Below are positions 1-44,114 of a stretch of 55,386 bases of DNA, one piece after another. Positions within the stretch are counted from its first letter, which is position 1; each line of letters begins with the position of its first letter. The notes beneath the pieces are model-generated. The model searched no databases. It was not told the DNA's origin and worked only from the letters and a program-made list of their open reading frames with translations. The stretch is taken from the NCBI GenBank assembly GCA_008632985.1, contig QPGO01000006.1, forward strand, positions 496,001 to 551,386. Direction: 5' to 3'. The DNA is from Psammoneis japonica (taxonomy: Eukaryota). Both the position numbers and the translations under genes were made by a program.

Positions 1-286
1 GAACTCTCTTGCACAGGTGGGTCGGCACTGATGATGAGTGAGATGAAAAAAGACCGGAGGAGTTTGAATTTTGTGTGTGGTGGCTTTGTCCGAGCGCCAG
101 TGCTCAGACTGTGGCGCGTCCGTCTGAGATGGACGAACCGAGGTGGCAGTGTCTGTGTTGCATTGATCGTCAACTGATGATGATGCGCATTCTTTCAGAA
201 AGCCCAAGCATTGCAACGTGTGTTCTTGAAATGAAGCGTTCTGATTGGTCCAATCTTCCATCGGTGGGGGGCCTGTCACGACTCCA
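1..286. repeat. Direct repeat copy A (cut by window edge); copy B is 3753-3963 + 4357-4432
   Basis: GAACTCTCTTGCACAGGTGGGTCGGCACTG at 1 recurs at 3753. The tail TTGCAACGTG...GGCCTGTCACGACTCCA recurs at 4357-4432, after the MITE. Confidence 0.9.
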
Positions 287-646
287 AAAATGGGGGGGGT
301 GCAGACGGAAGAAGAGGGGGGGAGAGGGGGAGCGAAGCGACCCCGTTGTTGCTGCTTTAACAAGAGAGAAGGAAGGAAGAGAGCAAACGGAAGCAGCAAG
401 GAAAGAAGTGAGACGACCGTGCAATGTGTTGTTGCGTTTTTGCGGAGTTGAAGATAGAGCGCATGAGCCTGATGCGCACAAAAGATTTCTGTGGTAGATT
501 TCACACATGCGCTGTCGCCCCCCATTTCCCATCTTCTATCTTGGTCCCAATTTGAGATGGAACGTTGGCTAGAATCACAGTGCAAATGATGAATCTACAT
601 TTGCAGGCTGCTTGGATGAACAATGTTCATCATGCGGCACTCTTCC

Positions 647-3619
647 TCAAGCAGCCACCCCCAACAAGTTTGTTTTTGAAAGATGAAAATCCCTGGCTCG
701 GAAGCAACAGAATTTTTTGGTCAGATCCGATTGCAGATTCGGCGCCAGATGCAACGGCAGCAAATGTGTTGGCAAACTAGTCCAAAATGGAGCAACAGCA
801 ATTGGCACACAGCATGGCACAGGGCATGGTGCAACAGGGATGGGTGGTGCGCGTCTCGGCGCTGCCTTGTCTTGAGAACACGAGGACTTGGTTTTTTTCG
901 CGCTCGGCCCCTCAGCACACGTCGGCGTCGGCTGTTGTGACTCGCAGTTCCTTTTGCATGGGTTCACCACAGTTGAAGCAGGATTAGATCGAGTTGCACA
1001 TGGGTTTCTTGTCCCACACTTGCTGCACATGCATCTGTCAGGGTCGTTGTTGCTGCTCGCAGCTGCTGCGCCAAATTTTGCTTTTCTCGCTTCGAGTTCC
1101 TCGCCCGCGCTTTCCAGTTGTTTCGGGCATGCTGAAAAATGCCGCTCACCATTGTCTGCTTTCAATTCTTCGACATTTTCATGCACAGGATGACCGACTC
1201 CCGCTTTCTCCGCCAACTTGTTGTTGTGGTCGAGCCTGCTGTGGTTGAGAAACGTCGGCACCCCACGAAAGGCGTGCGGAATCTTGGCGCGCTCGTCCGC
1301 CGTCATCTCGTCCATTCGAAGACGCTGGCGTGTCGCAATGTTGCATTCACACGTTCCAGCAAGGCACAGTGCATCTATGAAGGTGCTCCTGGAACCGGTG
1401 TTTCCAAAATGCTTGACGATGTGATGAAACTTCTCAAGCTTGGATTCGGTGCCGGTGGTGGTGACGTGCGTGTCAAGCTTGCACTTCGACCATTTTGAAG
1501 GCTTGATGACTCTGTGCAAGTCTCCACGTTGCAAAGGCTCATCGAGTCCACGAGCTGTCACCTTTGCATTTTCCACCGCTGGCTTGGCATCTTCCGTGAA
1601 GAGAGGCCTGCCAGAATCTGGATCATGCCGTCCGCCGGCGTCTGCCGCTCCAGGAGATGCAGAGCACTTGTGCCGATCAAACCACACTTCAAGATTGCTG
1701 TTGCGTGTTGCGAGAGGGTGAGTCCACCTTCGCACACACTTCTGGCAGTTTTTCCATTTCTTGCTCTTCTTGATCTCTTGAATTTCTTTGCTTGCACGTG
1801 TCTTGCCGCAGAGCCTTCCAAACATTAGCGCATTGATCACCCGCGCCTCGTTGGATTCATCATTGTGCCGAATGCAATCTTTCAAGTCACGAACGGCACG
1901 ACAGCAATCAATGTGCGTGCCTCGCAAGGTGCGAATGATTTGGTTAGTCCAGTGCCAAAGACCAAGCCGACACACTGTGTCCTGACCAAAAATTTCTTTC
2001 CAAAACTCTTCCTTGTTCGGCCATGCATCAGAACAGTGAACTTGGGGGTTCACATTTGGACGTCTGGCGAATTGCTCAGCAGCATGGGCAAAATCCTTGG
2101 TTTCCAGTGATGGCACCACTGCCGCCACCCCAATTTCCCCCGTCTCAACAGCCATGGTGAAAAGTCCTTTTCCGTCATTGTCTTTGTAATTTTTCAATTG
2201 GTCGAAGGTGTGGTCGGAAGCAATGCTCACACGACAACCGACTGATTGGATCTCTCTTGTGTGTCGCATGTTGTCGCTTGTGCCAGTGTTGGCATGTTTC
2301 GAATCGGCAACTGCGTCAAACATGTCGCGTGCGTTCTGACCTGTTGGTCCATGTCGACCCAACCACTTCTCAAAAGTTGACAACACTGGTGTGGGCGTCG
2401 TGGAACTTTTTGCCACTTCGATCCACCTCAAATGATGTCGCTCCTCCATGTCAAGGTAAGCTTGGCCACGTTGTTGATGTGGGCATGCCGACATGGCATC
2501 ACCGTTGCTGCTTTCCTTCAATTCGTGCTCAATGCATCTTGTTGTTGTCAAGTCCACATGAAACGAGGAGTTCGCGACCGCGTGCCGAACGTCCACGGGA
2601 TGTGACTGTCGGACAAGCTTGGGCAACTTAACCAGCAGCTTGCCATCATTCCCCTTGCATTTGCAACCACATTTGTTGCATTTGCAGTGCATTGCTGTTG
2701 CGCAATCGGTGTGTCCACTGACTTTAAAGATGGGAGTTGCCGGACAGTCCTTTTTTACATCAAATTGCTGGTGCATCATCTCACCACCACAATCATTGAC
2801 ACAAGGCAAAAACACACCCAGACAATTGAGCTCCCAGCGAAGTGTGTGTGCTGTGATGCCCTCCATCTCACTGTGGAGATCATCTGGGGCAGAGAATGTG
2901 TTGTCACGAGGTGCTGTAAATGACAAGGTGCCAGGGGGGAAGTGCTTCTGGTGCCATGCCAGTTTCTTCTTGTTTGCCTCTCCACCCATCATCTCGTTTG
3001 AGTCGGCATGAAATCGAGATGGCAATGAGTCCAACAGGTGCAATGTCAAAGCTTGCACTGGTGCAGAACAGGAGTTCTTCTTTTTCTTGCATGCATCAAC
3101 TCTTTTGCGAATCTCTCTCTTCAGCACCTCTGGAGAAAGAAGATCTTCTTCCACATTCACGGCAGAAAGCAGTGTGTTCTTCGACGGGACGGCAGTGATG
3201 GTGGCAGCAGCAGCACCGGCAGTGGCAGTGACGGGCATGGTGTCGGCAGCATCACTCAACAAGTCGGTCGTTGCAGATGGCTCACTGTTCTTTGAAGCCC
3301 TGGTGTGAATGCGGAACAGGTCCTCCATGCCTTCCTTGGTTGGACGCTGAAAACCCTGCACTTTTTTTGCGTTCTTTCTTGCGCCACTGGTCACAAAGCA
3401 GTGGACAGCCACGTTTCGCTCGGCGCTCATGTTCTTTCCATAACACATGGATTTTGGGCAGCTGGGATCATGGCCCTTTTTGCAGGTGGGTCCTTGTTTG
3501 CATCTCTTGCACTCAACAACCTTTTCTTGAGCAGTGTGACTGTTCGACAGAGTCAGAATTTGCGATTCTGCCTCCGCCGCCGGTGATGTTGTAAACCGAG
3601 GCGCATTTTTTCCTGACAA
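647..3619 (-). mobile_element. Zisupton/KDZ-like (DUF6729-like) DNA transposase ORF, TpA-hypermutated
   Basis: 990-aa ORF with motifs SDHTF, ETGEI, CSDAWP, RLGLWHW and GTESKLEKFHH (cf. Zisupton LDIWH and GSTSLESFH). Cys cluster upstream. Only 3 Tyr found, with excess Cys/His. Confidence 0.6.
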
Positions 3620-3752
3620 CTTTGCGACTCCAGAAAAAGCTCGCTCCTTTGCTTTTTTCGTGGCTGCCTTTCGAGTCTAAGACTGAATGCCCATGGTGCT
3701 GGGAAGCTTGCGGGAGCAACACTTCTCCACTCTGCTGCAATTCCTTCTCTCA

Positions 3753-4432
3753 GAACTCTCTTGCACAGGTGGGTCGGCACTGATGATGAGTGAGATGAAA
3801 AAAGACCGGAGGAGTTTGAATTTTGTGTGTGGTGTCTTTGTCCGAGTGCCAGTGCTCAGACTGTGGTGCATCCGTCTGAGATGGACGAACCGAGGTGGCA
3901 GTGTCTGTGTTGCATTGATCGTCAACCAATGATGATGTGTGTTCTTTCAGAAAGCCTTGAGCAGACGCGTTCCAGCCCTAGGTGGGACTCCGTGTGACAT
4001 TGGGCCCGTAGAATTCTACGTGCGAGGTCCTTAGTACGAGAATTTAATTAATGGATATATTTATCTTCAACATCAAATAAACGGCCAAGTTTGTGGTACA
4101 ATTATGCCTCTTACCACTCGACGTTTTTGCAAATGCACCTGCCCTACGCGATTCTTAAGACATTATAGAATCGCGCTGTAACAAAAAATGTCAAAAGTTT
4201 TTGGACGGATCGCTCAATAAGCGTACCGTAAAATGACACAAAATATAAAAAAATCACGTAGAATTCTACGTGCGCGACATACGACGAGATTCAAAAAACT
4301 ATCGATGTCACAGTTCAGCAGTACGAGGTCCCACCTAGACCTGGAACGCGTCAGCATTGCAACGTGCATTCTTGAAATGAAGCATTCTGATTGGTCCAAT
4401 CTTCCATTGGTGGGGGGCCTGTCACGACTCCA
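3753..4432. repeat. Direct repeat copy B, interrupted by a MITE
   Basis: Matches 1-286 once 3964-4356 is removed. Confidence 0.9.
3964..4352. mobile_element. 389-bp MITE with ~25-30-bp TIRs and 4-bp TSD AGCA
   Basis: Left end GACGCGTTCCAGCCCTAGGTGGGAC, right end GTCCCACCTAGACCTGGAACGCGTC. AGCA at 3960-3963 and 4353-4356. The empty site (single AGCA) is at 207-210. Confidence 0.9.
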
Positions 4433-5766
4433 TTGTGGCCACACGCCCCGCTGTGTGTGCCCCCTCCCAGATCACAGAGACACCCCCTAAAAAGGGGAGA
4501 CGGAAAGTCTGAAGTGTCCCCATGAAGTCTGTGTCCAGGTGCTGGGCACAAACACTTGTGCCTTTGATCTGAGCCAGTCTTCTTAAAAAAACAGTTTTCT
4601 TGCACTGTGGCACTGTGGTGTCACAACCATTGATGCTCTCAAAGTGTGGAGCATTGACAAGAAGAACACCCACAAGAACTCCAACTGGATGAGCAGGCGT
4701 TGCTGTCAGATCTGTTTTGGCCAAGAGATTGAGCAATGTGCTCTCATCTTTTTGCAAAGAAAAACATGTTTCAGAATCTTTTTAACAAGGCACTCATCTG
4801 CAATTTTGGCACATGTTGTCATCTCCCTGAGCTCAGTGGCTGCTTGCATCCCCTCGAGCTCAGCGGCTGCTGCTGCAACTCGAAGGTTTCTGCAGCCAAA
4901 TGGGAGGCTGGGCTTTGCATCTGTGGTGACAAACAATGTGGATTGCTGCAAACAACAACAAGTGTTGTCCATTTTTATGAGCCAGATGGAAAATGCTGCA
5001 AAGCAGTTGTGAGAGATCACACCGACACAGCACATCTGTGTCCCGTGGGCCCAAGAAAGGTGTGCGCTGCTGCTGGCTCCCAGGCAGAGAAGGCTTGCTG
5101 CACTCTTTGTTTTCACAAGATTTCAAAAATGAACTTTGTTCACATGTGATGACAGAAGGAACAAATTGACATTGAGCTGCAGAGCTGAAGACCAGTGGAA
5201 TGTGGTGGAAAGTGGGGATGGGACACTGTCAAAAAGAACTGAAAAAGCTGGTTGTGGAAAAGTGCCACTGAGAGACTTGCTGTTGTCAGTCTGTAGTGCA
5301 AGGCAGAAAATGCAGTCACTTGCCTGTCATTCCACAGTCTTCCACTTCGATGCATCCGTTGTGCAACATCTAATTTCGTTTTGTTGTGCAGCAAGACACC
5401 CAACACTACGATGATGAAGACACCGCTGTGACCGATGAAGGCGGATGTGCTTTACTGTTGACTGACTCAGATAGATACCGGGCCAATACATCCAAAAAAA
5501 TCTACCCTCAGTTCTACCCTGTAGAGAGTAGTACTCATCCTACGGGGAAGAAGACCAACCCGTAGCCATCAGTAGAGAAGCTACGTGCTAGTAATCAACC
5601 TACGCAAACCCCACGCGAGGAGTTGAACCCGAAAAAAAACTCCAAGACGAAGCGAGCGACGCTCAAAAAACACCGCGCCGTCACCTTGACCATGGCCTTT
5701 GAACGCCCGTAGTTCTACTCGGTACCCATTACAGCAAAGGTATGAATGCCAACATTGACTAATGAG

Positions 5767-8025: not shown

Positions 8026-9149
8026 GTCATCGGGAGCTATGAAAAGAGTGATAGAAATGTGGAGAGTGACGCTATATTCTATGAACGTGTCCCGCAAGAT
8101 GATAAGAGTGTAGGACCACCAACGAAAACAAAGTTTACCATGTCAAGCTCATAACGTTGCTACACGGCGATTGCAAGAGTGTGACGAAGTCGTCGCCTGA
8201 GAAACAAAAAAATCAAGCTTGAGATTTTCGCGATCTCCTCTCGCTACCTAGATACACGCAATGTAACGTATCACACAACGACGTTAAACGTGCGTCACAA
8301 TCGCTCCAGCTTTCTCATCAGCCGCTGACACTCCTTGACTCTGTTGACTTCGAGTAGCAGTTGTTACGGACATATCGGTAAACGCACCATCCTTTGTGAA
8401 AGCTATCGACAGTGCAATTGCCATCGAAGCAAGATCGTCATGGGAAAAATAGAAAAGAAGCCGCTTCGATCGGGTGTGTCGTCGTCCGTTGACGCCTCGC
8501 CATATTCATCCCTGCAGCAACCAAGGCGAGCTTCCCGATCTTCCACTAGTACGCCTTCACGCTCAACTAAAGCAACAGCCGCTCTGGTTCGGTACGGTTC
8601 AAGTCTGGAAATGGCGCTTCCAGGTCTGCAGCGCAGCTTCGAAGAAAACCTGATGGCAACAGCTCGGATGACACTGACCTTTCGGAGGCATTGTCGCAGT
8701 TGACCGTGAAAGCTTCGAATGGAAGGACTTAGACAACGAGTGGAAATGACGTTTGGCGGATTCTGATGCCTTATTTTATGGGGATGGACGGGAGATCGAG
8801 CTCTAGTAAAGCTTGACAAATTTACGACTACAAAACAAAAGGTCCAGGCAGTGCGTTGGGAACGCAAAGTGTCGTCGAGAATAGATTATGAGCGAAACGA
8901 GTTTTGCGAATCAGAACGCTGATTCCATTGCAAGTAAATCACAGACTGGGAGAGCACATCTTATCGGCAGCAAGTTCAGCGCATACGTTGCACATTCACA
9001 TTGTTGCGGATGCCGTGAAAAACTCCACTAACCAAGGTGTGATAGCAAACTACGTAGACTGATCTTAGTGGATTCTATGCCTTTTGAAACACGGTCATCA
9101 GCTTGTGCTGCACAGTGCACTTTGAACACATTCATAAGTTTGCAATGAT

Positions 9150-9720
9150 TCAGCTAATCGATACCCTGACAGACAAAGTACCATCATCATCACGAGTTGA
9201 TGAATAGTAGCCAGCAACATAACGCGAATTCCGTTCAATCTTGAGACCAAACGATGTCATGAAGTTCTCAAGCTCATGTGCTTTGATATTTCGGTGACTG
9301 GGAGGGTACTTGACAGTAACCGTGGCAGGAGCGAAGAACTGCTCTCCCTCCTGGTCACTTTCGACCCGATTTGGTTGCTGGTATTGGTTTGAGCGGCTCT
9401 CTTTCACTGTAGTTTTCTGAATCAGCTGAGAGAAATATTGCTTGGCGATATCGCAGGCAAGCTTCTCCGCCGCAACAGTTCTGTACTTTGATTCAATTGC
9501 CGTGGATTTCTCTTCAAAGTATTCTCGGTAGCGACCAAGAGAATGAAACAAATCCTTAGGGTCGCCTACACTCAACGTGATGTTCGAGTCGACATAATCC
9601 AACGCAAAATGCTCCATGTCTGCAACAAACTGAGCTCGAGGAACGGACAAGGGAAGCTGTACTCGTGCATCTCTCATGTAATCCAATACGCACTGGAAGC
9701 ACTCGCCGTTTCTTTCAATG
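9150..9720 (-). pseudogene. BTB/POZ (K-channel tetramerisation type) protein, 3' portion, unmutated copy
   Basis: IERNGECFQCVLDYMRDARVQLP resembles the KCTD-type DRDG..F..ILDYLR motif. The N-terminal part of ORF 9150..10037 runs into unrelated TpA-depleted DNA. Confidence 0.7.
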
Positions 9721-9985
9721 GCCATGAGCTGGAGCCTGAAGGTGTGCTCCAACAAAATCACCATTCTTGACATGTCTCTCAGCTTGTGCAGCAAAGGCAA
9801 AAAAGAGTTTGACAGTGCAAGAGGATGCATTGGAGGACCAGTTGTCATCATTGGGAGAGTGTTGTCATTGGTCACCTTGGGTGCAGTGTTGTGCCTTGAG
9901 CTTGTCAAGGCAGCCATCTTCTCGTTGCTTGGCATGGAGAGCGAGGGTGCCAGCAATGACTTCATTGTCTGAATGTGGACATTGC

Positions 9986-10375
9986 TTTGACTCAATTTCC
10001 GTGAATTTCTCTTCAAAGCATTCTTGGTGGCGACCAAGAGAATGAAACAAATCCTTCCTTGGGGTCACCTGCACTCAACGTGATGTTCGAGTTGACACAA
10101 TCCAATGCAAAACACTCCATGTCTGCAACAAACTGAGCTTGAGGGATGGACAAGGGAAGCTGTGCTCGTGCATCTCTCATGTGATCCAACATGCACTGGA
10201 AGTGCTTGCCATTTCTTTCAACAAACAACTCATTGTCTTCTGCTGCGCCCTCTTGTTGCCATCTTTCCGAGCTGATTGTGGCTGACATGCAAGAAGGGAA
10301 TTGATCCAAAAGCGATTTGGAGATTTTGCACTTCATCCCTCCAATGTTGAACTTGACAGTCTTTGAAGCTTCCAT
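9986..10375 (-). pseudogene. BTB/POZ gene duplicate, TpA/CpG-mutated
   Basis: MEASKTVKFNIGGMKCKISKSLLDQFPSCM...FVERNGKHFQCMLDHMRD. Aligns with 9487-9720 and has a 4-bp insertion. Confidence 0.8.
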
Positions 10376-10757
10376 GTCAGCAAAGGCACAAGAAGCTTCA
10401 AGACCTCCTGCCATGCTGCGTTCCCACAGTGATGTTGGCTGATGGAAAAGTGGCACCCAGCTGGCCTTGGCGAACGAAACGAAGAGTGATCAGGTCTTGT
10501 GCCGAACGGCAGAGCAAGCCAGAGCAAGCTAAGAAGGTCAGCGCCACTCACAAAAAGCATGTTTTAGATGTTGTGAGGGGTTCAGAGCCAGTCTCTGAAC
10601 CGAAAAGTGATTGAAGCTGAACCCACACCATGGAGAAGGTCTCATGAAAATCATTCCCGCATGAGAGATTGATTCAGTCACCATTGGACCAGCTGATTTG
10701 TGATGTTCAGCCAGAAGATTCTAACATCGACCATGCCAGAAGATTCTAACATCAACT

Positions 10758-10920
10758 GCGCCCTCTTGTTGCCATCTTTCCTGACCAATCATGGCTGACA
10801 TGCAAGAAGGGAATTGATCAAAAAGCATCATCAGATTTTGTGTTTTGTTCCTCCAACGTTGAATTTGACAGTCTTTGAAGCTTCCATGTCAGAGGTGTTG
10901 GAAGCGTCGAGACCTCCCAC
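10758..10920 (-). pseudogene. Third fragment of the BTB gene 5' end
   Basis: MEASKTVKFNVGGTKHKI; repeats ~10246-10408. Confidence 0.7.
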
Positions 10921-13510
10921 AGCAGTCCTTCTTGCTTTCTTTCTCAGCACCATGGAGCAGAAGTTGCTCTCAACAGTGTCTGCTGCCAAGTTGTGCACAG
11001 ATTTCACCCCCCCTGTCTCCCCCCTTGCCACAGCACCACACCAGGTGCCAGGTGCAGTGCCACACTTGCTGTTCGCTCTCTCTCTGGCAGAGAGAGAGAG
11101 AGCCCTTGACACAAAATGCCCAAATGGCTTCAACAGGTGTTTGCCATTGGATTCCTTCTTCTGCTGCCACTGTGTGACAGCAGAAGCAAACACAGATTGC
11201 TGCTCTCCACTGGCAGCTGGCTGGAGAGCAGGGCCCATCCGTTGCCCTGCGAAACCTGCAAACCTCAAGAATGGATGTGGCACAGCAGACAAAAACATCA
11301 AGGGACATCTGCAACGCACAATGACTTTTCTTGCATTTTCCTTGCCAAGGATGGATCACCCCATCTTTGCTCTTGATTGCAGGCAAACTGACACAAATGT
11401 TGATGATGTGCTGTGCCATGAACTTCAGCCCCATTTTCCAACAGATGGACAAGGAGCTAGAGTGTCCAATGTCCATGACCCTGTCACACATGCAAGAAGT
11501 GTGGTGGGAGACACTGTGGTGTGGCGCATGACTCCTTTGCACATTTGTCAGCATGTGGTGGACAACTTTTTTTGACTCTTTGTTTGCCAGCATGGGTCAT
11601 TGCACAGATTTTTTGTGTGGTCATGTGGAAACACATTTTTGTCTGCACCACTGCCAACCTCAGCTTTCTTCTTGTCATCATCAACAGAGGATGTCATCAA
11701 ATTCAAGCTGCAACTCTTGTTGATGCTTTCATGCAGCTCGTTGAGCTGATCTTGGAATTTCTCTCAGAAAGCTGTCTTTTTGTGTGCGGTCATTTTTGAA
11801 GGTGACTTGCCAACCATTTTTCAAACTGCCTTGTGTTTCTCTTCATCCGTCAGCCTGAGGACCTGTTGAGTCCATTGCACCTGCTGTTGCACAGTCAATC
11901 AACCAAAAATCTGCTCGGTTTTTGTGTGCAGCCTCTTCAAAAGACAAAAAAACATTCTGACTGCAGCAACTGCATTGACAGCCTTGACTTTCCCATCTGC
12001 ATGAGAAGAGTGTCTTCAACAGGGATTGTCAATTTCATCAAAACTTTCCCCAGTTATTTTCTCTGCACCTGCACTCTGTGCCCCCTCATCTTGTCTTTTG
12101 CCACTTTCCACACCTCTCACCTCTGCATGGGCCCCGTCAAATGTTGTCTCTTTGCATCTTTCCCAAAGTCATTGTCTGCATGCCACTTTGGACAGTTCTG
12201 CACTGATTCAGCCAAGTGCTTGTCCTGTGTGGAGTCAGCAAACAAACAAAGATCTTTTTCAGAAAAAGCACCACCCATTTTCTCCTTGCAAACATGCACC
12301 CAATCTGACTCCTGTGAAAGAGTCAAATCAAACAATGATGCATTCATGTGGCAACACTCATGCACTCATGATTTGAAAGGTTGGTGCTGCAATGGCTTGT
12401 CTTGTGTTTGTCACTCTTTGCTGCAAATGCAACTTTGCTGGACAGGTGAAACAGCACGCCCATTTCAAACTTCACTCAGTGTTCATTGCTTGGAATCTGA
12501 GCAACCAAGGTGTTCTCTGTCTTTTTTGTTGACACAGCTTTAGGGTGCATGATCTCTGACGACACGAGCTCATGATCTTTGGAGGTGAGTTGTCGGGAGG
12601 CAGTTTTGGTGATCAAAAGTTGTTCCAATGGAAAGATTCTCTGCGGCAAATTCATCATTGTTCCATGATGGCAGTTGCAGGGCCATGTGCTGCTGCACCA
12701 TTGGTTGGAAGACAGATGGATTTGTCCACAGGGGCAATTCATGCGAACTTGCCAATTGACTCAAATCGAGGACTGCCCCAGAAAAAACTTGCTCAAGATC
12801 AAGATCCTCATTGTGGCCAAAAGTGCAGAAGCTTTGATGCCTGCAGCCAGAGTTAGGCTCATGGTGAAAACAAACATCTGCCCAAGAATGACCGCGCTGC
12901 TGCTTCCGCCCTTTCTGGCAAGCAGACGCAAAGATGGGCATCTTTGGCCAGCCCCCAACTTGCCAATTGCAACTCTGTCAGCTCCCAATGACTGCAACCA
13001 AGAGTGTGGAAACAATGACATGCACCCAGCTGCCTCTGAAAAGCTGTGAATTGTTGTCATCATGCTTCCGTGGGATGTTGCTCACGGAGAGACATTGGCT
13101 TTCTTTTCCCACAAAACGAGCCATCGCTCACAAGGCAGGCTCTCCTGCAGCACTTCAATGATCTCCACAAGCACTGCATTGCATCCCATGCAATGACCAT
13201 GGCCCCTGCTGGCATTGCCTCCAACGTTGCCATGCACAAGGTGTTGCTTCCAGCGCTGCCAAGTTGACAGCTCACCACAAATGCTGAAAGACCAAGCTGG
13301 AGCGACTGCCTGCCAGAGAGAGCAAGAGCATCTCTTTTCCCAAGCTGGCTCCTCTCACACAGCAGATGCTGCCATTTGCTGCATTGGTTGGTGGAGACAC
13401 ATTCCCTTCCAAACTCTGCAAATCGGGCACAAAGAAGTTCTGTCGACAAGCCACGAGGGCCAGCTGGCCACCCGCCATCTCGCACTCCTGAATGAACTCG
13501 CGCATGGGTC
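10920..13510. mobile_element. Degenerate TpA-depleted repeat relic, family unresolved
   Basis: Almost no TpA, few CpG and no coherent ORF. Faint Pif1-like fragments (KIKILIV, LPIATLS, MAPAGIASNV). Confidence 0.35.
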
Positions 13511-13775
13511 ATGAATTATGACTGTGACCGACTTAGATCATGACTACCAAATTGTCTAGTCATTAACAGCATTGGGCATATATAACGTTCAAATCAGAAA
13601 GTCATTGCAAGTCTCATACAGTTCACCGTTGTTTCTACTGGAACTAGAGAGATACCTGACATTTTCAATTCTCCTCGAAACAATGAAGAGTCATTTGAAA
13701 ATTTCGCGCGACATTCAAACAACGTTCGCCTTCACACAAAAAGCACCAGAGTGTAATCGCAACAAGGCCCGAAAT

Positions 13776-14351
13776 ATGGTTTCTTCTTCTGACACACAAG
13801 CTGATTCTTCTCATCCCATGAGCGAGCCTCTTCTAACCGATGAAGAGCCACAGCGCTTCGATGACCGCGTTCCCGAGGAGTTTCTGCAGTACGGAGTGTG
13901 GCTCTCCACGGTGATGGGAGCAACGCTTGGTTTCCTCGCTCCCTTTATTGCTTTAGGTGTCGCTACAGTTGTATCAATAACAAAATTTCCTCATCTGAAT
14001 GTTGACATTCCATTCAATGTTGTATGGACCATCCTGGTGTTGTTGGCGGTTTACGTTTCCCAGCTTCTCTTGCAAAAGACGATCATCCGGCGCTCCCGAC
14101 AGGAAGGGGTCACGGAGGAAGCTCTCGAACTCGTCAAGCTTCGATTTGGTCTAGGTGCTTTGGTAGGCTTACTTCTTTCATGGGCCCTTTCCTGTTTGGT
14201 GATTGGCTTTTCTTTTTGGGACAAGATCGGATTGATATCTGGCGGAGTCATTGTCTTTATGTACACCGAAACTCGCGCCATGAGAATTTGCGAAGAAGAC
14301 TACCGCGTTCAAAGGGTGAATGATCCCATTGTCGGAGTTGTCGTAGTTTAG
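13776..14351 (+). CDS. Multi-pass membrane protein, paralog of 17347..17931
   Basis: About 4 hydrophobic segments. ELVKLRFGLGALVGLLLSWALSCLVIGFSFWDKIGLISG is nearly identical to the paralog. ATG at 13776 is in frame with the ORF. Confidence 0.75.
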   Translation: MVSSSDTQADSSHPMSEPLLTDEEPQRFDDRVPEEFLQYGVWLSTVMGATLGFLAPFIALGVATVVSITKFPHLNVDIPFNVVWTILVLLAVYVSQLLLQKTIIRRSRQEGVTEEALELVKLRFGLGALVGLLLSWALSCLVIGFSFWDKIGLISGGVIVFMYTETRAMRICEEDYRVQRVNDPIVGVVVV

Positions 14352-14518
14352 GACTAAAACAAAAACGGAACACAGCGCTTTCATGCGGCACCTCTCGCCC
14401 TTTAAGTCGCCATAGAGAATGAATAAAATCATGTGAATAACTACAAAGTAACTACCTTTTTTCAAAACGAAAGACGACCTTTGTGTCTCGCCTACTCTCA
14501 CTAAACATCGGCCATTGG

Positions 14519-30419: not shown

Positions 30420-33400
30420 TTCGGTCTTACTTTTCAGAAAACATTTGCCAACAATCATCATCAGAAATGTTCTCTCTAGAGCTTCAAGCTGCAAAAGACA
30501 AAATGAGCACTTGATGCACAGACAACATGTGTTGGGCAGGCAAATCAGCAAAATTGAGAGCTTGTTCTTGGTGCAAGGTCCTTCTGCAGCAGTGCTGGGT
30601 GTGTTGCCAGTGGCTCCAGTGCATCTCCAGCTGGGGCCATGGATGCTGGCTGTCCCACACCCTGGCACAAGGTTGCTCCTGTCACCAACACTGCAGCAGA
30701 TGACATCATGAAGCTGTGCAATGGTGGCTGAGAGCCACCACCTCAATGGCCAGCTGTTGTCATTCTCACTCTCTAGAAGAAGAGCAGCAAGCAAGAGGTG
30801 ACAATGGAAACAATGCTCTCTCCCTCGCTCACACTCCCACATGGCCACAGGGTGGATGGAAGTGCGTGTGGGTCTGTTGCCACCAGCTCCACTTGTCACC
30901 AAGGCAACTTTCAAAAATTCCACCAGCAGGAAGTGCATGATTGGCACCCTGCCATTGTGCCACATCAGCAGTGTGACTGGGTGCAAGTGTGGCATCCAGT
31001 CACCCCTCCAGTGTTGACACTGCTCTGCACATCAATCTTCAAGAGCTGCCATTGCTGCTGCTGACCTCTGAGATGCTGAGCAGCTCATGTTGCCACCAGA
31101 CTCCTCCTTGCAGTTGATTCCTCCAATTTTGGAAAGGAAGATGAAAGTCCAGGGCCCCTCTTTTCTGGAGTTGATTCACGCACATCTTCATCTCAAACTG
31201 TGGGTCACACAGATGATGTCAACCCTTGGGGCCAAGTTGTGCACCTCAGCACGCAGACAAAGACTTCAATGTGCCCCTTGTTGGCTCCAATGAAAAGTCT
31301 GGGTTGTGGTCAGGACATTGTGCCTCTGTTGAGTGTCTGATGCCCTGACCAAGGTGGCAGATGAAATGTTGCCATGATCCATCATGATGAGCACACACCT
31401 GGCAACCGGTTGCTGTTGCAGCACCCCCTTCCAAAGCCCTGTGATGTCTTGCAAAGGATTTGAAGCACATCATTTCCAAGTGTGGTGCAACTTGCAATGA
31501 AGAGAGGCAATGCTTGAAGATGTCTCTCCCCACACATCAACTCTCAACTCTGCAGTGCAGTCTCCTGCTTGATTCATTCCCCACCTTTCACCACTGTGCA
31601 TGACTTTGTGGTGCATTTGGACAATCTCCTTGCTGACCCCATTTTCCACCACAATGTTGATGACATCAATGCAAGCACCAAAGATTCATGACACTTCCTC
31701 ATCCTGTCACTCCCTCTGGACATGATGGACTCAGTGGCGAGTGGAGCCTCAACTGGGATCAGAGACAAAAGATGGGCACTGGGGTGTCACGGAACAATTT
31801 CTCTGCAAACTGCTTTGACCCTGAAATTCCTCCCATGTTCCACATTTTCTCCATTTTCCACACACTGACAAAGCTCAAAAAGCCATGGTGGCCCTTCTTT
31901 CCATGGAGCCCTCTGTGCTGCTCCCAAACAATGAGCCACCACTGTTGGCAACCCCTTGGCTTCATCCCTCATGCTGCCACAGCCCCACTCTGAAGAAAAA
32001 AATGTGGTTTTTAGATGCAACATGAGGAGCTGTGATTGCATCCTAAAAACAATGATGGAGCCCTCATGATTGAGGCACACAGAAGACCGCCCCATCAAAT
32101 GTGCCCACAGTCAGCTGGGAGAGAAAGTGGGCTTTGCACCAGAGTGTGGCACCACACTCAGCACCCCCAGTTGGAGATGGTCTGATTGCTGGCCAAGCAA
32201 TTGAAAGAGTTCTCTTGGGACAGGGATGAAAGCTGCCAAGCAAGTTGGTCGTGCACGCTGCTCAGCTTTGTCAATGTCTTGTTTCTCACAGCATCTGCTG
32301 GAGGAACTGAGACTTTCCATGCACTTCATCCTGGCCCCAAGTTGGCCATGGCTGACTTGAGTTGTTCCACTTTCACATGGAGTTGTTGATGTCAGCTGCT
32401 TGGCAGAGCTCCAGCCAAAGCTCAGCCTGAATGATGCAAAGCCAACAGAGCAGATGTTTGCCCTGACCTTGTCAAGCTAGTTGGGGTCATCAGCAGCACC
32501 CCCAATGTCAGTGGTGGGTTGCTCCAGCAAGGAATTCAGAGCCGCAGATGGGAAAATCAAGGAAAGAGTCATGCTCAACAAACACCACCATGATTTCAAG
32601 GTGTCGAATGTTTTGAGAATGTGCAGCATTGGAAAGGGGAGCCATGCAAGAAAAATGTTGACAATTTGATGCTGTGAAAAGATTTGCTTTGAGCCCAAAT
32701 GGCTTCAGCGGGTGACCTCAGGGGCAAGCAAAACACCCATCACCTGCGGGGGCTCTGTTGCACCTCCTCTGACCAGCTCTTGCTTCCCAACAACTGGCAG
32801 TCCTGCAGGAGCAGCCTTGGGAACAACAGAGATCATCTCCAGTGCATGACCCAGGTGGTTCAATGCCATTGGCTTTGTCAACAGCCAGCGAGGAAAGTGG
32901 CAGCAACAAGCCAAAAGCAGCTGAGTTGTTGTGGGAACTCAAAAGGACTCAGGGCCCAGCCCTTCCAGTGGGGGCTCAAACACACATCAGACCATTGCTC
33001 TTCTCAAGCTCATGCCATGAACAACAGAGTCAGCCTGTTTTCTGGTGCAATGGCAAATGATGAGTGCTTGTCAGTGTTGACACAGAACACCAGCTGCAAA
33101 AGAAGAAGCAAAAGTCGAACAAATGCAAGGAATGTGCATCAGCAAGTTGACAAAGCCTCAGCCAGAGCAGTGCACTTGCTGTTGCTGAAGCAAGTGCGCA
33201 CTTCATTGATGCAGCCCAGCATCCCAACTTTTGAAGTGACCAGCTGGGAACTCATGTTGCCCATCTTGAATTCAGCAAACTGCTGTCCCGTTCAAGCCTG
33301 CTCAACATGGCTGCAAAGCCTTGAATGTCCAAGAACCAAATCACGCTCTTGACAGTCACCCCATCTCCATGCTCAATCACCCCCACATGAACTCTCAACG

Positions 33401-34300
33401 AAACTCAGTGTGGTGTCACTGTGATTGCTTCCCTCAAAGAAGAAGGCATCTGCCTCACACCCCTTTCACCATCAACCACCTGGGAGCTCCCAGGTGCTCT
33501 GCTTCCTGCCTGCTCTTTAGAGCTGGCCAAGACAACCCCACTCCTGGTGCCCCTCCAGCTCCACCCTGGAAATCAGTGCCCTCTTTGCAACACCCATCTG
33601 TGCATGGTGCTGCCCCTGCATCAATGTTCAACTTTCTCTGTCAGCCATGCCTTTTGCCCTTTTCTCGCTGATGCAGCTTCCTTGACCAGCACACCATCAC
33701 CTCCACTCAATTTGGTCTCACCTGCTTTGCCACTGCTCCTGCTCAATGGGGCCTTCAAAGCCTCAGCTTTGCCATTGCCAAACCCCTTGCTGATCAGCTT
33801 CTCTGCTGTTCCACACACCAAGCCACATGCACAACTTGCTGTCTCCACTTTCAGAAGCAACCCACCCATTCTCCCCACCTGCGACACTCCTGTTTCACCC
33901 CACCACAACATCTGCGCTCCACACCACACTGCTGGGTGACCCTTCATGTGCACATGCCAGAGCAAGGTGTCCCCCTGGCCCACCAACAAATGCAGCACAA
34001 TGTGCTGCTGGCAAACTCAACCAGTCCTGCTGCCTCAACCAGCCCCACCTGCTGACAGACTGATGCTGATGCTTGTGTGAGTTCTCCAGTGTGCACAACT
34101 CTGCTGTCCACACAAGCCACAACACCACCGCCATGACAATGCACAAACCCAAAAGCAGCAACACAACAAAAATGCTCCCCAAAGGACATGCAACACAACC
34201 CCATCCTCAAAGAAAACCAGAACAACAAAATGCTGTGAGTCATTTGAGTGAATTGTTTGCCTCTTTGTTGTCAATGGACATTGTCAAAAATGCCAGGGCA
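30420..34300 (-). mobile_element. Heavily mutated Ty3/gypsy-like retrotransposon relic
   Basis: On the minus strand, RNase H-like KTLTKAEQR (~32250-32280) and LLGQQSDH precede integrase-like RTSIHPVAMWECER (~30830-30870). No intact ORF; TpA essentially absent. Confidence 0.4.
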
Positions 34301-37300
34301 AGTCAAAAATCATGGCTGATGGGTCTCTTGCATGTTGTGCCAAGCTCTGCTCCAGAGCAAAGCACTCTAGAGCAAAGCACTCCAGAGCAGTGGCCCTTGA
34401 CAGAGAGTCCATCTGCACAGTCACACCTGCAGAGCTGGCTGACTGTGACTCTGCTGGTGTCACTTTCTTTGCCCAAACTCCGCCCACAACCTGGTCCATG
34501 TTGTTTCATCCATTGCCTCTCTGGAGACCTGACCAGATGACAAAAGCTTCAGGATTTGATTCCTGGACACAAATGACATCTGAGGACTTGCGCCGTGCAG
34601 AACATTGGCCTGGAAAGGCCCCGCTGCTGCAAGCTTGTGCAGCACCAGATGACCACGCTGGCAAAATGGCAGCAAAGTCAAAAGTGGGTGGAACAATGCA
34701 AACTGTGATGAGCTGCTGAGTCTCGCGTCACAGTGTGCTCAATGGAACATCTTCCTGAGGCAGTTCTGAGTTGCCTTGCCTGTTTTCATGGTCCCAAGTG
34801 CCGCCAGCAGTTTGTTGCATCTGCGCATTTTGAGGAGCCCGGCCATGCAAGCCTCCATCTCCCAACTTCACCCAGCGCAAAACCCACCAGACTAAAAACA
34901 AAACCCCAAACTCCACGTTGACAGCGCTGCTGCATTTCCACCCTGCAACTCCAGCAACAAGCTGACCCACACCCCTGGCACATCAACAAAATGTGGCAGA
35001 AATGCACTGCAATTCTTTGCCAAAAATGATGTCACAAGTCTGTGGCACCCACCAGAAACAGATGGCAGCAGGAAAAACAGGACCCAACTGGATGTCAAAT
35101 TCAAACATGCACTCACCAATGCTGCAACCAAGCTCTCCTCTTGGGACAGAAAGCAAAGTCATTGAGCAGAGGTGGATGGAAGGGGAGTTGTTGAGACCTG
35201 AGAGGCATGAACAGAAAACAGTCAACAGCTTGGCAAGTCAATCATCCAAAAATGCCTTTGAGACATGTGGACTTTGTGCTGAAACTTGTGCAGAATTGTT
35301 GGCAAACACAAAAAAAGCCAAATCATGTTGAGCCAGGTCTCAAATGCCAACTTCTGGGGGCATCAATGACAGAAGATTGTTTGCCACATGCACCAGAGAA
35401 CTTAAAATGACAACAGAAAAAGGGGGGTCATTGGCACCTGAGAGGCATGGACAGAGAACAGCCCAGAGCAGTTTGGCCAGTTGGCCATCTGAAATGGCTT
35501 TTGGATCATGCAGAGCATCTGATGAAGACAGCGTCAGACTGGATGAAGAACAGGATGGTCAGAGGTTGCAGGAAACTTCCTCATTTTGCCAAAGACATCT
35601 TTGCCATGAACAACGTTTGTTCAAGAAAAAAAATGGAGGATCCAAGCAACCACACCCTTTCAGCAGAACAAGATGAGAAATGCATTGATGATTGAGCCAA
35701 CTTTCTGTTGAGATCAGAGGAAGAGGGCGTGCATCTGCACTGCATTTTTGCCACGCAAATCCTGAGAAGTTGACAAGGACAGGGTTGCCAAGTTCAGGAA
35801 AGAGATGGACAACAAACAAGGTGGCTGCAAAAATCAATTTAGACAGCACACAGGTGCACATTGCTGCACCGCAGATTGTTTTTGTTTGTTGGTGCAATGC
35901 AGTCTGTGCTGCATCAGGAAGAATCATGGGCAAGGATTGGATGGGTCAACAGCACTGAGTGCACATGCATGCAAAATGTGCAGCGGGTGTGCATCAGCTG
36001 CAACTGATTGGAGGCAAAGTTGCAAAATGTTCAGACCAAAAAATGTGCCACAAATGCAAATGGTGTGAGAGTGCACAGGATTGAACATGGACGCAAGCAC
36101 AATTCAGCCAGGCTCCTCAGCAGAAAATTGCGCATCTCAGTGCTGAAGCAGAAGTGGCTGCACCATGCATCCCACAAACAAATCACACTTTTTTGCAAAA
36201 GAGGGAAAATGCACTTGGCGCCAGTCATGCCACCCCTGACAAGCAGGGGCGACCCCCCCAATGACAAGAGGTGAGCAATGGAAAACATGACAGGTGCAGC
36301 AAGCGCACATGACTCAGCACCACAACTGTGGTGGCTTGTGTTGGATGAGTCAGTGATGAGAGCCATTGGATGAGCTGCAGAACAACGCACCTTTGACAAC
36401 AGTGATGCAGCAAGTGGTGGGTCAGCAGTCATGGGTGGCATGCTCATGACAGATGGGAGAGAAGAACAAGACAAAAACAGCAAGCAATGAAAGAAAAAGC
36501 AGTGCAATGACAAAGTGAGCAACAGGGACAAGATTGGAATGGAGAGCTGCCACAAGAACACATTGTTTTGACAGCACAAATTTCTGAAATAAAAGGCACT
36601 CAAAAGTCCAAATGGAAGCAAGGGTTTTGCTGAGATGGCTCTGTTAGATCTCAGCATGCTGCAAGAAAAGAGATGACAAATTTGGGAAATGTCGAAGGAT
36701 GAGGTGTGATGGCAAATGACAACAAAGAGGAACAGCGCCTGCGGGGAAATGAAAAAAGAGTTTTTCCACAAGCACCATGCTCACAAGGTGGTTGGGGCAC
36801 AAAAAGAAAATGTCCACAGGCCCAAAACAATGCCAAGATGCCTTCTCTGGAGGAATTGCCAGAGGGGGCAGATGTCATGGAGTCCCAGAGCTGTTTTGCC
36901 TGCTGCTTCTTGCCAACAGCTGTCATTGGGAAGACAGCTCAGAAGCACCAGCTCAAACCAAGGCACTGCTTGAACAAGCTGGCATCGGCAAGTGACAAGG
37001 TGTTTGGTCTGCTGGTGGTGAAGAACAGCTGGAGCAAGTGGGCTCACATGCGCGGCAAAACAAAGGAAGAGATGAAGGTGGAAAGAGAGAGCGGATGCAT
37101 CCCCGACAAAAAATGCAGCACGGGGAAGGGGAAGCAAGCAAGAAGGAATTGTGGCTGGAACAAGCAAAGGCTGGAGAGGTGCTGAGGATTGGGAAAATGC
37201 GCGCACAATGAAACATTGAGCAAGGACACCAACAAGTGCAGTGAAATGTGGTCAAAGGCACTCTGGGAACATGTGCATGGCAGAGAAGGAGCACAGGAAG

Positions 37301-39810
37301 ACAACAGCAATGATCTGCAATCAGAGAAAGATGAGACAAGGACAACATTCAACATTGAAAGCACAGAGCTGTGGCACCTGGGTGCACAAGCAGCTGTTCA
37401 AATTCACTCACTTCCCAATGATTTGCAAATGAACACAAACAGAGCCAACCAGACAGGGGCAGGGGTGCTGAAAAGGAAAAAAAAAAACACAAAACAAAAA
37501 TGACAACAAAGGACACAGGAGCAATGCTGCAAGATCAAACATGCCAGTGCAGAGACACAAAAGGGATCAAGCAACTGACCCACATTGTTTGCCATTGCAC
37601 CTGTGCTGCAAAGTCAGCACAATGGTGTGGCTGCCTGCATCAAATGCGGCAGAACCCAAACTGCAGTGCGGCCAAAACCTGCATGGAAATTGAAGGAAGG
37701 ACCTGAATTGTTCCATTGGGCCACAACCAAATTGTCCCCCCGTTTGATGAAGGAAGAAAATTGCAGAGAAGAGCAACAAACACTCCAGGAGCCAGAAGAG
37801 GTCTGGGCCAGTCCCTTTTAAATGCACAAGATTGCTTGTGATGACAAAATGAAGGCATGTCAATGAAAGCCTCAGTTGGAAAGGGCAGGCAAGTGCACAA
37901 GATTGCTTGTGATGACAAAATGAAGGCATGCCAATGAAAGACTCAGCTGGAAAAGGCAGACAAGTGCCGCCATCACACCATCTGAAAGAAAAGGCAACAT
38001 GAGTGCCAGATCTCACATGGAAAAATGTGCAGGGGTGGCGGCTGTGAAACCAAGAGGCAGAGTTGTGTGCAAAACCCAGACCCATCAGCACACTGCCAAA
38101 ATCTTCCAAAGTGGCATTGGTGGCATCATGTTTTGGACAGCAAAAATGGCATGGTTGCACGGCAGGAAGAAAGGGTTGACAAAGACCAAACTCCTGCATG
38201 CATGGATGAGACTCCAAAAAAAAAAAAGAAGAAGAAGCACAATGGCTGATGCCCAAAGCCCCATTTGTCATGAGCAAGCTTGGCTTGTTGTTTCAATGAA
38301 GAAAGGAAAAGACTGCAATTGCTCCATCAAGAAGGCATCATGTTCACCTGCAGCCCAATTTCTTTGCACCAGGCATCGCTGGAAAACCGTGATGCTTGTC
38401 CAAGAATTTGCAAAAGTTTGAAAACAAAAAGAAGTTTGCGGCACCACCCTCACGAAAGTCGAGACCGCAAGATTTTCAACAAGTGCTTTTGGGCACAATT
38501 TGCCAAGAAAGGAAGCAAGCCAATTGCAAATGCAAAATTGTGAGACACCTCAAGCAAAATTTGGAACAAGGACTCATTTGAGCAGCCAGAGACATTCAAG
38601 ATTCAAGAGCGACTTGAATTTCATGCCAACATCATTGCATCTGAACCTGATGTTGCTCAAGGAGACAAATGAGTTCAAGCCGTCATCGTTTCTGATGATG
38701 CTGTGCAATCTTGTTGTCATGTCAAAGAGAAGAAGATTGCTGAGGAAATTGAGTCTCCAACAAGTCCTGACAATCAAGACAATGACAAGAGGTGGTGAGG
38801 CACATGAGTTTCATCAAAAAGGCCCCAAAACTCAATCAATCACAACACACACACTCCCCTTCACAGGGTTGCCTTCTTCAGATGGCAGAAAGACTGTTTG
38901 ACAAACACCGACATTGTCTGCATCCCTGAAGCTCTGATGTACACTTTTGTTCACAATGCGTGCACTTTTCAGAAATTGTGATGGCCAAAAAAAAAGAAGC
39001 CAGCCAACACCCAAAGAAAAGAAGGACATCAAGTGCGCCACAAATCTGCCCCTTGACATTTGCAACAGGTGCGCCAAAGGATGCAGAAAAGAGCAAAGCA
39101 TGAGACTCCCAAGCAGATGCACTGTGGTGGTGCAAATGCAGCAAAAAAGATGCCAATGATGCAGAGATGCAATGAGTGATTGACCATGAATGCAAGATGA
39201 CCAACCCAACTCCACACACAGCTTCAACAAAACACAAACAGCATCTGTTAGCGAGTGATGATCAAACAGCACGAAATGAGGAAACAGAGACAAAAAAACT
39301 TGCCACCACAATGTTGTTGACCACCCAGATGTCACCTGCACCACATGATGCAACCAAACAAGCCACGGGTCCAGGCACATGAGCTTTTGCAGCATGTGCA
39401 GGGCAGCCAAAGCACACCAGGAAATCAAACGAAGCAGCACGCCAACAGCAGTGCATCAGATGAGGTTTTGCCACCCACAACAAAAGGGGCACAGAAAGAG
39501 GAGGTAATTCCATTGTGTGGGCCACACTGCTCCGGCTGTCAGTGCTGATGACTGCAGCTGTGTGTTGGCTCTTGCAAGCAGAGCAGCTGTGGTGGCACAA
39601 TGTTGGAGGGGACTCAGTCAAGAGGCAGGGGAAGTGGTGCACCCCTCTTCAGCCACAAATGCTTTCCTTTGTTCTTCAGAAGAATCGAGGAAAAGAGAAA
39701 GCAAAACAACTCAACGGCCAATCCAAATCTTGCTCTTCATCGTGGGGAGCCGCACAGGGCTCGTTCAATTTGCGTTGCGTGGGATGCAATGTTTGGCCTG
39801 TCCTTCGGGG
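34300..39810 (+). mobile_element. Degenerate DNA-transposon-like relic(s), TpA- and CpG-depleted
   Basis: ASDKVFGLLVVKNSWSKW...CGWNKQRLERC (36990-37185) resembles the SDEAF..N.W...GWS.EG..RY accessory ORF of some DNA transposons. Internal tandem repeats. Confidence 0.4.
37823..37967. repeat. 71-bp tandem repeat x2
   Basis: TGCACAAGATTGCTTGTGATGACAAAATGAAGGCATG at 37823 and 37894. Confidence 0.9.
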
Positions 39811-40070
39811 TGTGTGGCCTATGAAACGTCACTCCCACATAAGATGAAAGGCTAATTAACTTGATAAAAGGCTTATTTTCGGCTATATGACGTCAATTTA
39901 GGCTACTTCTTACCGCCTTTTTCAAAGCCTCGAGTCAAAACGATGTAGATCTCTGATCACAAATTGCGTACCGTGTTAAAATGTAGTAACTCTTATGCAA
40001 ACACAATGGAGAAAATGTGTTGTTTATTACGCAAGTCTGATTGTAAGACTCCCTAAGGTTCGGTGTCATC

Positions 40071-42869: not shown

Positions 42870-43759
42870 AATCTGTTTCAAGGACAAACTTTTGGTTGTC
42901 CAGGAGGGGCTTGACTTTTCCTGATAAAAACAGACTCGTGAGGGTCTTCACATCATTTGCAACGGCAGGAGCCGACGTGTCACAAGTGCAAAGCTTGCAG
43001 GCTGGTCCTCCAAAGTTGGACATGAACTCATGTGACATGAAACTGGTGCCTGCATGAAAAAAACCTTTTCCATCACCCACAATGGTGACAACCTTTCCTC
43101 CAATGGCATCCAACACCAAATCAAGCTCCTCTTGTCCTTCAACTCATCCATCACGAGCTGTTCCTTGCAGCCAGTCACTGCATCGGCACCAAGTCCCTCA
43201 ATGAGATCCATGGCACTGCCTGTCAAGTGCACATGTGACACTCCCATGGCTTTGGCAATCTGAGCCGCCAGCGCTCCAACTCCACCGGATCGCCCAAAAT
43301 GGCAACCGGCTGTCCCTCCTTCAAAACAATCCCTGAGTCACCAATCCCTGCAAGGCTGCAAGACCAGCCAATTGCGTGGACGCAGCTTGCTCAAACAATG
43401 CTTTTTGGGTTTGAGGCTGGCTGCTTGTTCCTTGACCTTGGCACATTCGGCAAAGGTCCCACCAGCAGCAGCAGCATCTGCATGGATTTCGTCTCCAACT
43501 TTTGGAGAGTCACGGTTGTCTCTGGCCCAATCTCCTTTGCAGTCCTGGAGACATCAAATCCAGCACCAAAACCGGGTTTTGCACCAGGAAAGGTGCCACT
43601 CATGAGTTTCCAATCAATTGGATTGATTGAGGCAGCGTGAACCTTGATGAGAAGTTCACCCTTGCCAGGAGTGGGTCGGTCGACATTGCCATCTGCCGAC
43701 AGTGCGTCTGGTGAACTTGTGGTGGGGTCACCAATTTTGTGCAAAACAGCAGCCTTCAT
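42870..43759 (-). pseudogene. MDR-family NADPH:quinone oxidoreductase-like pseudogene, TpA-depleted
   Basis: MKAAVLHKIG...PTPGKGELLIKVHAASINPIDWK, GGVGALAAQIAKAMG, LGADAV, VLDAIGG, GKVKP, spread over several frames. Confidence 0.8.
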
Positions 43760-44114
43760 TTTGGTGAAAACTTGTTGAACGGTGATGTGCGTGTTTTTGT
43801 GTATTATGTTACGTCCAGTGTCATGCCAACACTGTCACAGCGACAACACGTCGCTCATCCAAGTTGTCTAAAACAACAGTTCACCGCTTTGACCTTGGAT
43901 GTGTTTCTTGGTCCAAATGGGCCGTCCAATGAGAATATGCTTTTTCTATCTCTCGCCACCACAACTGCGAAGCACACCATGTTCTGGATCGCCTTGACCG
44001 TCACCACCCGCCAACTCGAACGACAAGTCGCAACGAAGCAACTACAAATGCCATATTGAACTGTACAGGCCTAAATAGTTGAAAATTCTGAAAATTTTGT
44101 TTGCACTCTGCATC

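Follow-up and report, generated by a model that had tools for sequence, protein, structure and literature searches.

Sharp-edged blocks of diatom DNA stripped of TpA point to a targeted mutator

The genome of the diatom Psammoneis japonica contains a duplicated BTB domain half of which one copy has no TpA dinucleotide at all. Which process has removed TpA from this copy, and why was its neighbor spared? The duplicate lies in the window analyzed here, 55,386 nt of one genome (assembly GCA_008632985.1, contig QPGO01000006.1, positions 496,001-551,386, forward strand). A first-pass annotation, made from the letters alone, had described the difference as a directional TpA to TpG/CpA hypermutation and had proposed a repeat-targeted mutator.

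Repeat search and alignment of the two copies (A and B, Table 1) over ~235 bp gave 208 matches, 24 transitions, one transversion and one 4-bp indel, the latter an insertion in copy B relative to A that shifts the frame. Eight of the 25 substitutions were TpA in A and either TpG (five) or CpA (three) in B, so that every TpA of A was affected; these are exactly the eight sites that the first-pass annotation had listed. A further nine were CpG in A and TpG/CpA in B (9 of the 14 CpG of A), in agreement with its count of about nine CpG and little else. Four more belonged to two TG/CA swaps of neighboring bases (9610-11 and 9700-01), which left three other transitions and the transversion. Copy B thus had no TpA in 237 bp, against 8.8 expected from the background density of the window, and not a single private CpG. 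Counted per base, 8/16 TpA bases differed compared with 3/123 bases outside any YpR step (odds ratio 40, Fisher p 6e-7); the same test for CpG bases gave p 1e-5. The codon differences comprised 18 nonsynonymous and 5 synonymous changes, from which we conclude that they track sequence context and not protein function. The four Tyr codons of A read His, Cys, His and Cys in B.

The frame with copy B (ORF 10013-10456) matched PF02214 (BTB_2, KCTD-type) with an E-value of 1.2e-10 and 42 bits (cut-off 21.4), covering profile positions 1-87. The frame with copy A covered the second half only (positions 44-87), with an E-value of 7e-4 and 20.3 bits, just below the cut-off. The duplicate spacing is 500 bp, and the 264 bp separating A and B (9721-9984) resemble neither the first half of the BTB domain nor the tail of A.

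The direction of change was determined with BTB relatives. A full HMMER scan retrieved 804 of them at E up to 1e-3 (a word-based protein search with the copy-B frame had given eight candidates, none significant), and A and B were aligned with the best 20 of the 804 that matched in one stretch. Twelve residues differed between A and B in the shared half. The outgroup state was found in A at nine of these, in B at one (Val/Ile) and in neither at two. At all five residues with a TpA codon (Val/Met, Tyr/His, Val/Ala, Tyr/Cys and Val/Ala), A had the outgroup state. The polarized sites leave out 9520, 9529 and 9557, where B is out of frame or the site lies across two codons. For the CpG-linked residue differences, the outgroups backed the CpG state of A at four of five (Glu, Val, Arg and Asp), the fifth (Val/Ile) backing B. 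The earlier argument for polarity, that a DYMRD motif had become DHMRD, held up: the residue is Tyr in 16 of the 20 relatives, Phe in four and His in none.

Copy A was itself not fully intact, a point missed in the first-pass annotation, since one ancestral TpA and one CpG were lost from it. One residue that is Tyr in 20/20 relatives is His in A and Cys in B, meaning that TpA was lost in both copies, and another that is Arg in 19/20 relatives is Cys in A and His in B, meaning that CpG decayed in both, in different directions. Overall, A has lost 1/9 and B 9/9 of the inferred ancestral TpA, at a distance of ~265 bp (p 4e-4). Restricted to the outgroup-polarized sites, the losses were 1/6 and 6/6 (p 0.015). 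The check proposed earlier, that TpA change should exceed change in other contexts, came out in favor of the claim for the A/B pair, with the direction polarized by outgroups.

We have then looked at the whole window with a 1-kb profile and a listing of TpA and CpG positions. Four blocks, named D1 to D4, were nearly free of TpA (Table 1); their borders were sharp to ~30 bp and together they made up ~18 kb of the 55 kb, one third of the window. The blocks held 43 TpA in 18,026 bp (~670 expected), compared with 1374 in the 36,844 bp of background, corresponding to observed/expected ratios (o/e) of 0.04 and 0.55. The CpG o/e was 0.34 in the blocks and 0.99 in the background, and TG and CA were raised to 1.80 and 1.64 (background ~1.2 each). 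The other dinucleotides and G+C (0.48-0.51) were nearly equal in both, including ApA with 1.25 in blocks and 1.16 in background. The deficit of the window as a whole (TpA o/e 0.39, TG/CA ~1.4) is therefore due to discrete purged blocks. The intergenic DNA adjoining every border was TpA-rich.

Table 1. Positions of the duplicate, the purged blocks and the features inside them (obs/exp, observed/expected counts)
Feature	Position in window	Strand	Description
Copy A	9486-9718	minus	Second BTB_2 domain half and conserved tail; 8 TpA, 14 CpG; unmutated state
Copy B	9985-10221	minus	Second BTB_2 domain half; 0 TpA, 5 CpG; purged state
D1	1-3956 and 4353-4487 (cut by window start)		TpA 20/152 obs/exp; CpG 200/231
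D1, main part	1-3956		TpA 20, 148 expected; CpG 196, 224 expected
D1, continuation past insertion	4353-4487		0 TpA
D1 open frame, 1009 codons	650-3676	minus	Three distant homologs
MITE-like insertion, 396 bp	3957-4352		Terminal inverted repeats ~25 bp, internal 18-bp direct repeat
D2	9688-13516 (3829 bp)		TpA 8/143 obs/exp; CpG 62/217
D3	30478-39819 (9342 bp)		TpA 15/348 obs/exp; CpG 93/528
D4	42926-43801 (876 bp)	minus	TpA 0/33 obs/exp; CpG 24/50

This distribution explained the fate of the duplicate. The left border of D2, between 9708 and ~9750, falls where A and B cease to be similar (9720), so that copy B is inside D2 and copy A just outside. Only copy B was hit because it sits within a purged block. 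The pattern that the first-pass annotation had seen in the duplicate was indeed present in copy B but was not confined to it, spanning instead a block of 3.8 kb. Moreover, copy A, ~265 bp away, keeps its TpA and CpG, which argues that A-B pairing was not the trigger. The idea of a repeat-targeted mutator thus survived in one part only: the changes are confined to stretches and far above those at other sites, but pairing between A and B did not set them off, A having been spared. The annotation's further suggestions, that repeats are the target, that the mutator serves genome defense and that it works by adenine deamination or by error-prone repair in methylated chromatin, are inferences. Beyond chance matches of 7-13 bases, no terminal repeats were found at the ends of D2, D3 and D4.

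At the right edges of D2 (13424-13516) and D3 (39686-39819), the last 100-130 bp were TpA-free with a normal CpG density, and CpG decay seems to end short of the border of the TpA purge there. Elsewhere in the window, a 516-N scaffold gap lies at 54122-54637, and DUF6824 occurs in two frames, 46400-47183 and 52008-53660, the first with internal tandem repeats of ~110 bp (78-94% identity). For an epimerase-like frame of the background, 48 relatives were retrieved with a best identity of only 48%; the two of them with species names are diatoms, in line with a source diatom that has no close representative in the protein collection searched.

The genetic code sets the consequences for reading frames. 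Conversion of TpA turns codons for Tyr into those for His or Cys and can never produce a stop codon. As TAA and TAG are removed (3.9 per kb in the blocks, 32.6 in the background) and no new stops arise, the blocks carry long spurious open frames. We have scanned 44 of the 63 block frames of at least 100 codons against Pfam. None of these 44 matched a transposon family, a transposase or a reverse transcriptase. Only the dehydrogenase of D4 passed, besides weak below-cut-off matches to Kp4, zf_topless, PLAC8 and ADH_zinc_N. D4 is a broken gene for a zinc-dependent dehydrogenase/quinone reductase (ADH_N E 9e-7, ADH_zinc_N weak), and its purge spans from ~45 bp before the ATG to ~22 bp after the TGA. 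Of D3, 26 of the 32 frames of at least 100 codons were scanned, with one weak below-cut-off PLAC8 match and 25 frames without a Pfam match.

Direct repeats at 1-286 and 3753-4432 flank D1, with a long open frame between them. Tyr makes up 0.3% of this frame and 2.9-4.5% of its three distant homologs. At the 23 columns with Tyr in at least two of the three homologs, the frame has His 11 times, Tyr three times, Cys once and another residue eight times; Phe was kept at 13/26 columns and Trp at 5/7. The direction from TpA to TpG/CpA claimed by the first-pass annotation was therefore polarized twice, by the BTB relatives and by the D1 homologs. The frame has Cys/His-rich N-terminal motifs and belongs to a family without a Pfam match; Pfam searches with the three homologs gave none, and a metagenome scan for relatives of the frame returned 34 pattern matches, none confirmed. 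A language-model look-up in a protein atlas related it to DUF6729 and Mutator-like clusters, which is only a lead. The frame may be an undescribed diatom transposase family.

The right-hand D1 repeat contains a TpA- and CpG-rich, MITE-like insertion that was not purged (30 TpA, 28 CpG). Either the purge is not a standing property of that place or the insertion is very recent, and the insertion may mark when the purge of the D1 locus ended. The insertion is probably multi-copy. Also in D2 are two first-half BTB copies (10243-10408 and 10756-10917). Between them, at 10710-10756, is a 25-bp tandem duplication (22/25 bases match at 95%) of which both units retain a residual TpA in CTAA context. 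Segments of D2 were found at 2-3x the local read depth (207 at 10510-10710, 137 at 11917-12117), with loose contig ends leading into other TpA-poor sequence, indicating that some of D2 has further copies elsewhere in the genome.

The repeat pairs lying wholly within blocks allowed the timing of the changes to be examined. Over 284 aligned bases of the D1 repeats, 12/12 transitions were at YpR steps, with one transversion and three CA/TG double changes; the first-half BTB pair in D2 had five such double changes. Such doubles are expected if a single ancestral TpA or CpG has changed separately in the two copies, and their presence in within-block pairs indicates that the process acted on chromosomal DNA after duplication. 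With YpR transitions and only one other substitution in the D1 repeats, the purge was fast compared with ordinary substitution. D1 had a TpA o/e of 0.09 and a CpG o/e of 0.75, whereas D2-D4 were depleted of both. This supported an order in which TpA is lost first and faster, with CpG decaying later. As TpA was lost from D1 with three-quarters of the CpG kept, the TpA purge was not merely riding on the decay of methylated CpG.

The surviving TpA were not a random sample. Relative to background density, survival was 0-2% for RTAY, 2-8% for half-sites and 22-30% for YTAR (CTAA/TTAG, CTAG and TTAA), and this ~10-fold better survival of YTAR over RTAY looks like the substrate preference of an enzyme. 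As to which base of a TpA changes, tetranucleotide gains favored T to C after a purine by ~2:1, and the Tyr codons of D1 went to His over Cys by 11:1, which fits the opposite rule. The two opposite flank rules each fitted 2/4 discriminating A/B sites and neither was kept.

Several features are plain in the window: the changes are directional and limited to TpA and CpG, the borders are sharp, the process acted after duplication, and TpA was lost ahead of CpG. We consider it likely that these features reflect a targeted, unit-limited DNA hypermutation that strips TpA first, with slower CpG decay afterwards, in a manner resembling repeat-induced point mutation (RIP). Such a process would act on DNA already in the chromosome and be limited to discrete sequence units. 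Within these, T:A to C:G transitions on either strand would turn the self-complementary TpA into TpG or CpA, and hardly any TpA would remain. Loss of CpG from the purged units would follow at a slower pace, with deamination of methylated cytosine as its simplest cause. Copy B would have been converted by lying inside such a unit and copy A spared by lying outside.

An enzyme would presumably carry out the conversion, and its targets would be repeated or silenced DNA, as in RIP. Under the preferred chemistry, a TadA/ADAT2-type enzyme would deaminate the adenine of TpA in DNA; the second choice would be a modification of the thymine in TpA that makes it pair with G. Targeting by repetition or silencing is plausible. 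Signs of multiple copies within the 55-kb window are the 2-3x depth of parts of D2 and the repeats flanking D1. Simple homology triggering was not supported, since copy A and the MITE-like insertion, which are short (235 and 396 bp), were left untouched; copy A may have been spared by being below a length threshold. More tentatively, the blocks might be the product of a natural locus-targeted T:A to C:G system at TpA, guided to repeated or silenced units as a genome defense. It is possible, and we put it forward with similar reserve, that the enzyme of this system is a DNA adenine deaminase or one that aminates or oxidizes thymine, making it the mirror image of RIP. A full-text literature search, with subscription journals and supplements outside its scope, found no description of TpA to TpG/CpA hypermutation, and the blocks point to a targeted DNA mutator of an apparently undescribed kind.

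Fungal RIP changes C to T mostly at CpA, thereby creating TpA, lowering G+C and making stop codons; it hits both copies of a duplicate, is tied to the sexual cycle and requires a RID/DNMT-type protein. The blocks share with ascomycete RIP the saturating transitions in discrete sharp-ended units with a strong dinucleotide signature, the action on chromosomal DNA after duplication and the inactivation of transposon-like and duplicated genes. Like methylated RIP relics, they also appear to decay further at CpG. The differences are equally clear. The change is from T:A to C:G, TpA is destroyed and TG/CA gained, G+C is unchanged and no stop codons are possible. Unlike in RIP, one duplicate (A) was spared while B was purged, pairs wholly in blocks having both been hit, and the host is a diatom and not a fungus. 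Deamination of 5mC would fit the CpG half of the pattern, judging from outgroup Arg codons (CGN) that became Gln, Cys or His, but it cannot remove TpA, and D1 shows TpA loss with CpG largely intact. The earlier statement that neither 5mC deamination nor fungal RIP accounts for the pattern was thus borne out: TpA is removed, in the direction opposite to RIP.

Two further processes change A to G next to T. ADAR hyper-editing produces clustered A to G changes on double-stranded RNA with a preference for a 5' U or A, and polymerase eta errors at WA motifs in antibody hypermutation change A to G at TA and AA. The clustering and the 5' U are shared with ADAR. In contrast to ADAR, ApA is untouched here and the repeats were hit independently as DNA; in contrast to polymerase eta, AA is not depleted in blocks from which TA is almost absent. 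With ApA intact, the mutagenesis is of neither type. The tRNA target of ADAT2, A34, always follows the conserved U33, that is, it lies in a UpA step. An ADAT2/3 enzyme has been reported to deaminate both C (TCG preferred) and A in DNA (PMC10354150). The activity was demonstrated in vitro and in E. coli; its preferred context for adenine was GAA, hypermutation of a genome was not reported, and it differs from the present case, in which TpA is the target. A further parallel is the CpG-targeted hypermutation of repeats in basidiomycetes (TCG to TTG; PMC3318451 and PMC5381629). Repeated elements are hit there and a YpR dinucleotide yields TpG/CpA; that system is cytosine-only with no TpA component, and TpA loss is here the faster and more complete part. 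Diatoms have been reported (PMC9998398) to possess DNMT4 relatives of the RIP protein RID.

Other explanations can be weighed against such a targeted process. A genome-wide bias against TpA and CpG could have left the blocks as old non-functional DNA at equilibrium, with selection keeping TpA elsewhere. The background is compatible with some bias of this kind, as its TpA is also low and its TG/CA raised (o/e 0.55 and 1.2), copy A has lost one invariant Tyr codon by a like change, and the blocks have broken genes and no recognizable intact one. However, synonymous TpA persist in 11 background frames, their o/e being 0.42 across codon positions 2-3 and 0.52 across positions 3-1, and 30/276 Val codons of these frames are GTA. 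A and B are also of the same age and yet differ as described in their TpA losses, the single non-YpR substitution between the D1 repeats indicates a fast purge, and both the insertion within D1 and the intergenic DNA at each border are TpA-rich. In addition, mutation-accumulation lines of another, model diatom gave a spectrum without such an effect, the mutable contexts being CG, CC and TG and the bias GC to AT, according to PMC6604790. We regard a genome-wide bias as improbable.

An origin on RNA or cDNA, by transcript editing followed by reverse transcription, would make the blocks inserted retro-copies. D4, which matches one gene with short margins on both sides, and D1, flanked by direct repeats like an LTR element, would agree with this, as would the sharp borders. 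On the other hand, the D1 repeats differ in outcome at the same sites (the three CA/TG double changes) and were thus hit as separate DNA, B is collinear with A with the border exactly where similarity stops, and the two strands of B were hit about equally (five TpG, three CpA). Nor is ApA depleted (1.25 vs 1.16), contrary to the neighbor preference of ADAR-type editing, and the end of D4 has no poly-A remnant. An RNA or cDNA origin has, in our judgment, as little chance as the genome-wide bias. A depletion so extreme and so specific to two dinucleotides would also fit blocks kept free of TpA and CpG by selection, for instance as a way to escape a nuclease, RNA decay or transposons that target TA. 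The blocks, however, hold frame-shifted genes in which conserved Tyr residues are now His or Cys, and the excess of nonsynonymous changes between B and A marks dead copies that are not under selection. This makes maintenance by selection very improbable.

We have also compared the assembly with sequencing reads. Of the words sampled from the region, 95% occur in one public read run, and contigs derived from it at a depth of ~60 reproduced 8500-14500 as a single clean path that agrees with the assembly across A, B and both D2 borders. A 3358-base contig spans A, B and the left D2 border with one difference and a 6668-base contig of equal depth spans the right border. The contigs have no TpA in B at the A/B sites, so the read check proposed earlier excluded an assembly error; the run may be the source of the assembly itself, and this support is then not independent. 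Five letters differed between assembly and contigs (10345, 10616, 11191-11192 and 12854), all transitions and all in D2, with none in 2.2 kb of flanks. Among them, a residual TpA at 12854 appears as CpA, and 11191-2 shows a CA/TG swap. They may be allelic variation left by the same process. An artefact of assembly or consensus, of misread modified bases or of arithmetic coupling between TpA o/e and CpG loss (the effect of Duret and Galtier, as cited in PMC3829696) is the least credible reading, for although heavily modified DNA can be miscalled and the reads may not be independent, a misread symmetric modification would be expected to mix TpG and CpA reads at each site, B also has an indel and non-YpR changes, and the Duret and Galtier effect does not apply where the raw TpA count falls and not the ratio alone.

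A targeted mutator acting on chromosomal TpA would have consequences beyond this locus. For annotation, the purged blocks carry long false open frames and hide dead genes and transposons from similarity searches. Such a process would also bear on the long-standing question of why genomes under-represent TpA, by offering a system where the loss of TpA can be dated and mapped. We know of no spontaneous or enzymatic process that removes chromosomal TpA by transitions to saturation. If the process is enzymatic, it would be a natural counterpart of the engineered adenine base editors and the first RIP-like genome defense outside fungi, with the opposite chemistry. As a genome defense, it would eliminate TA target sites and codons for Tyr while introducing no stop codons.
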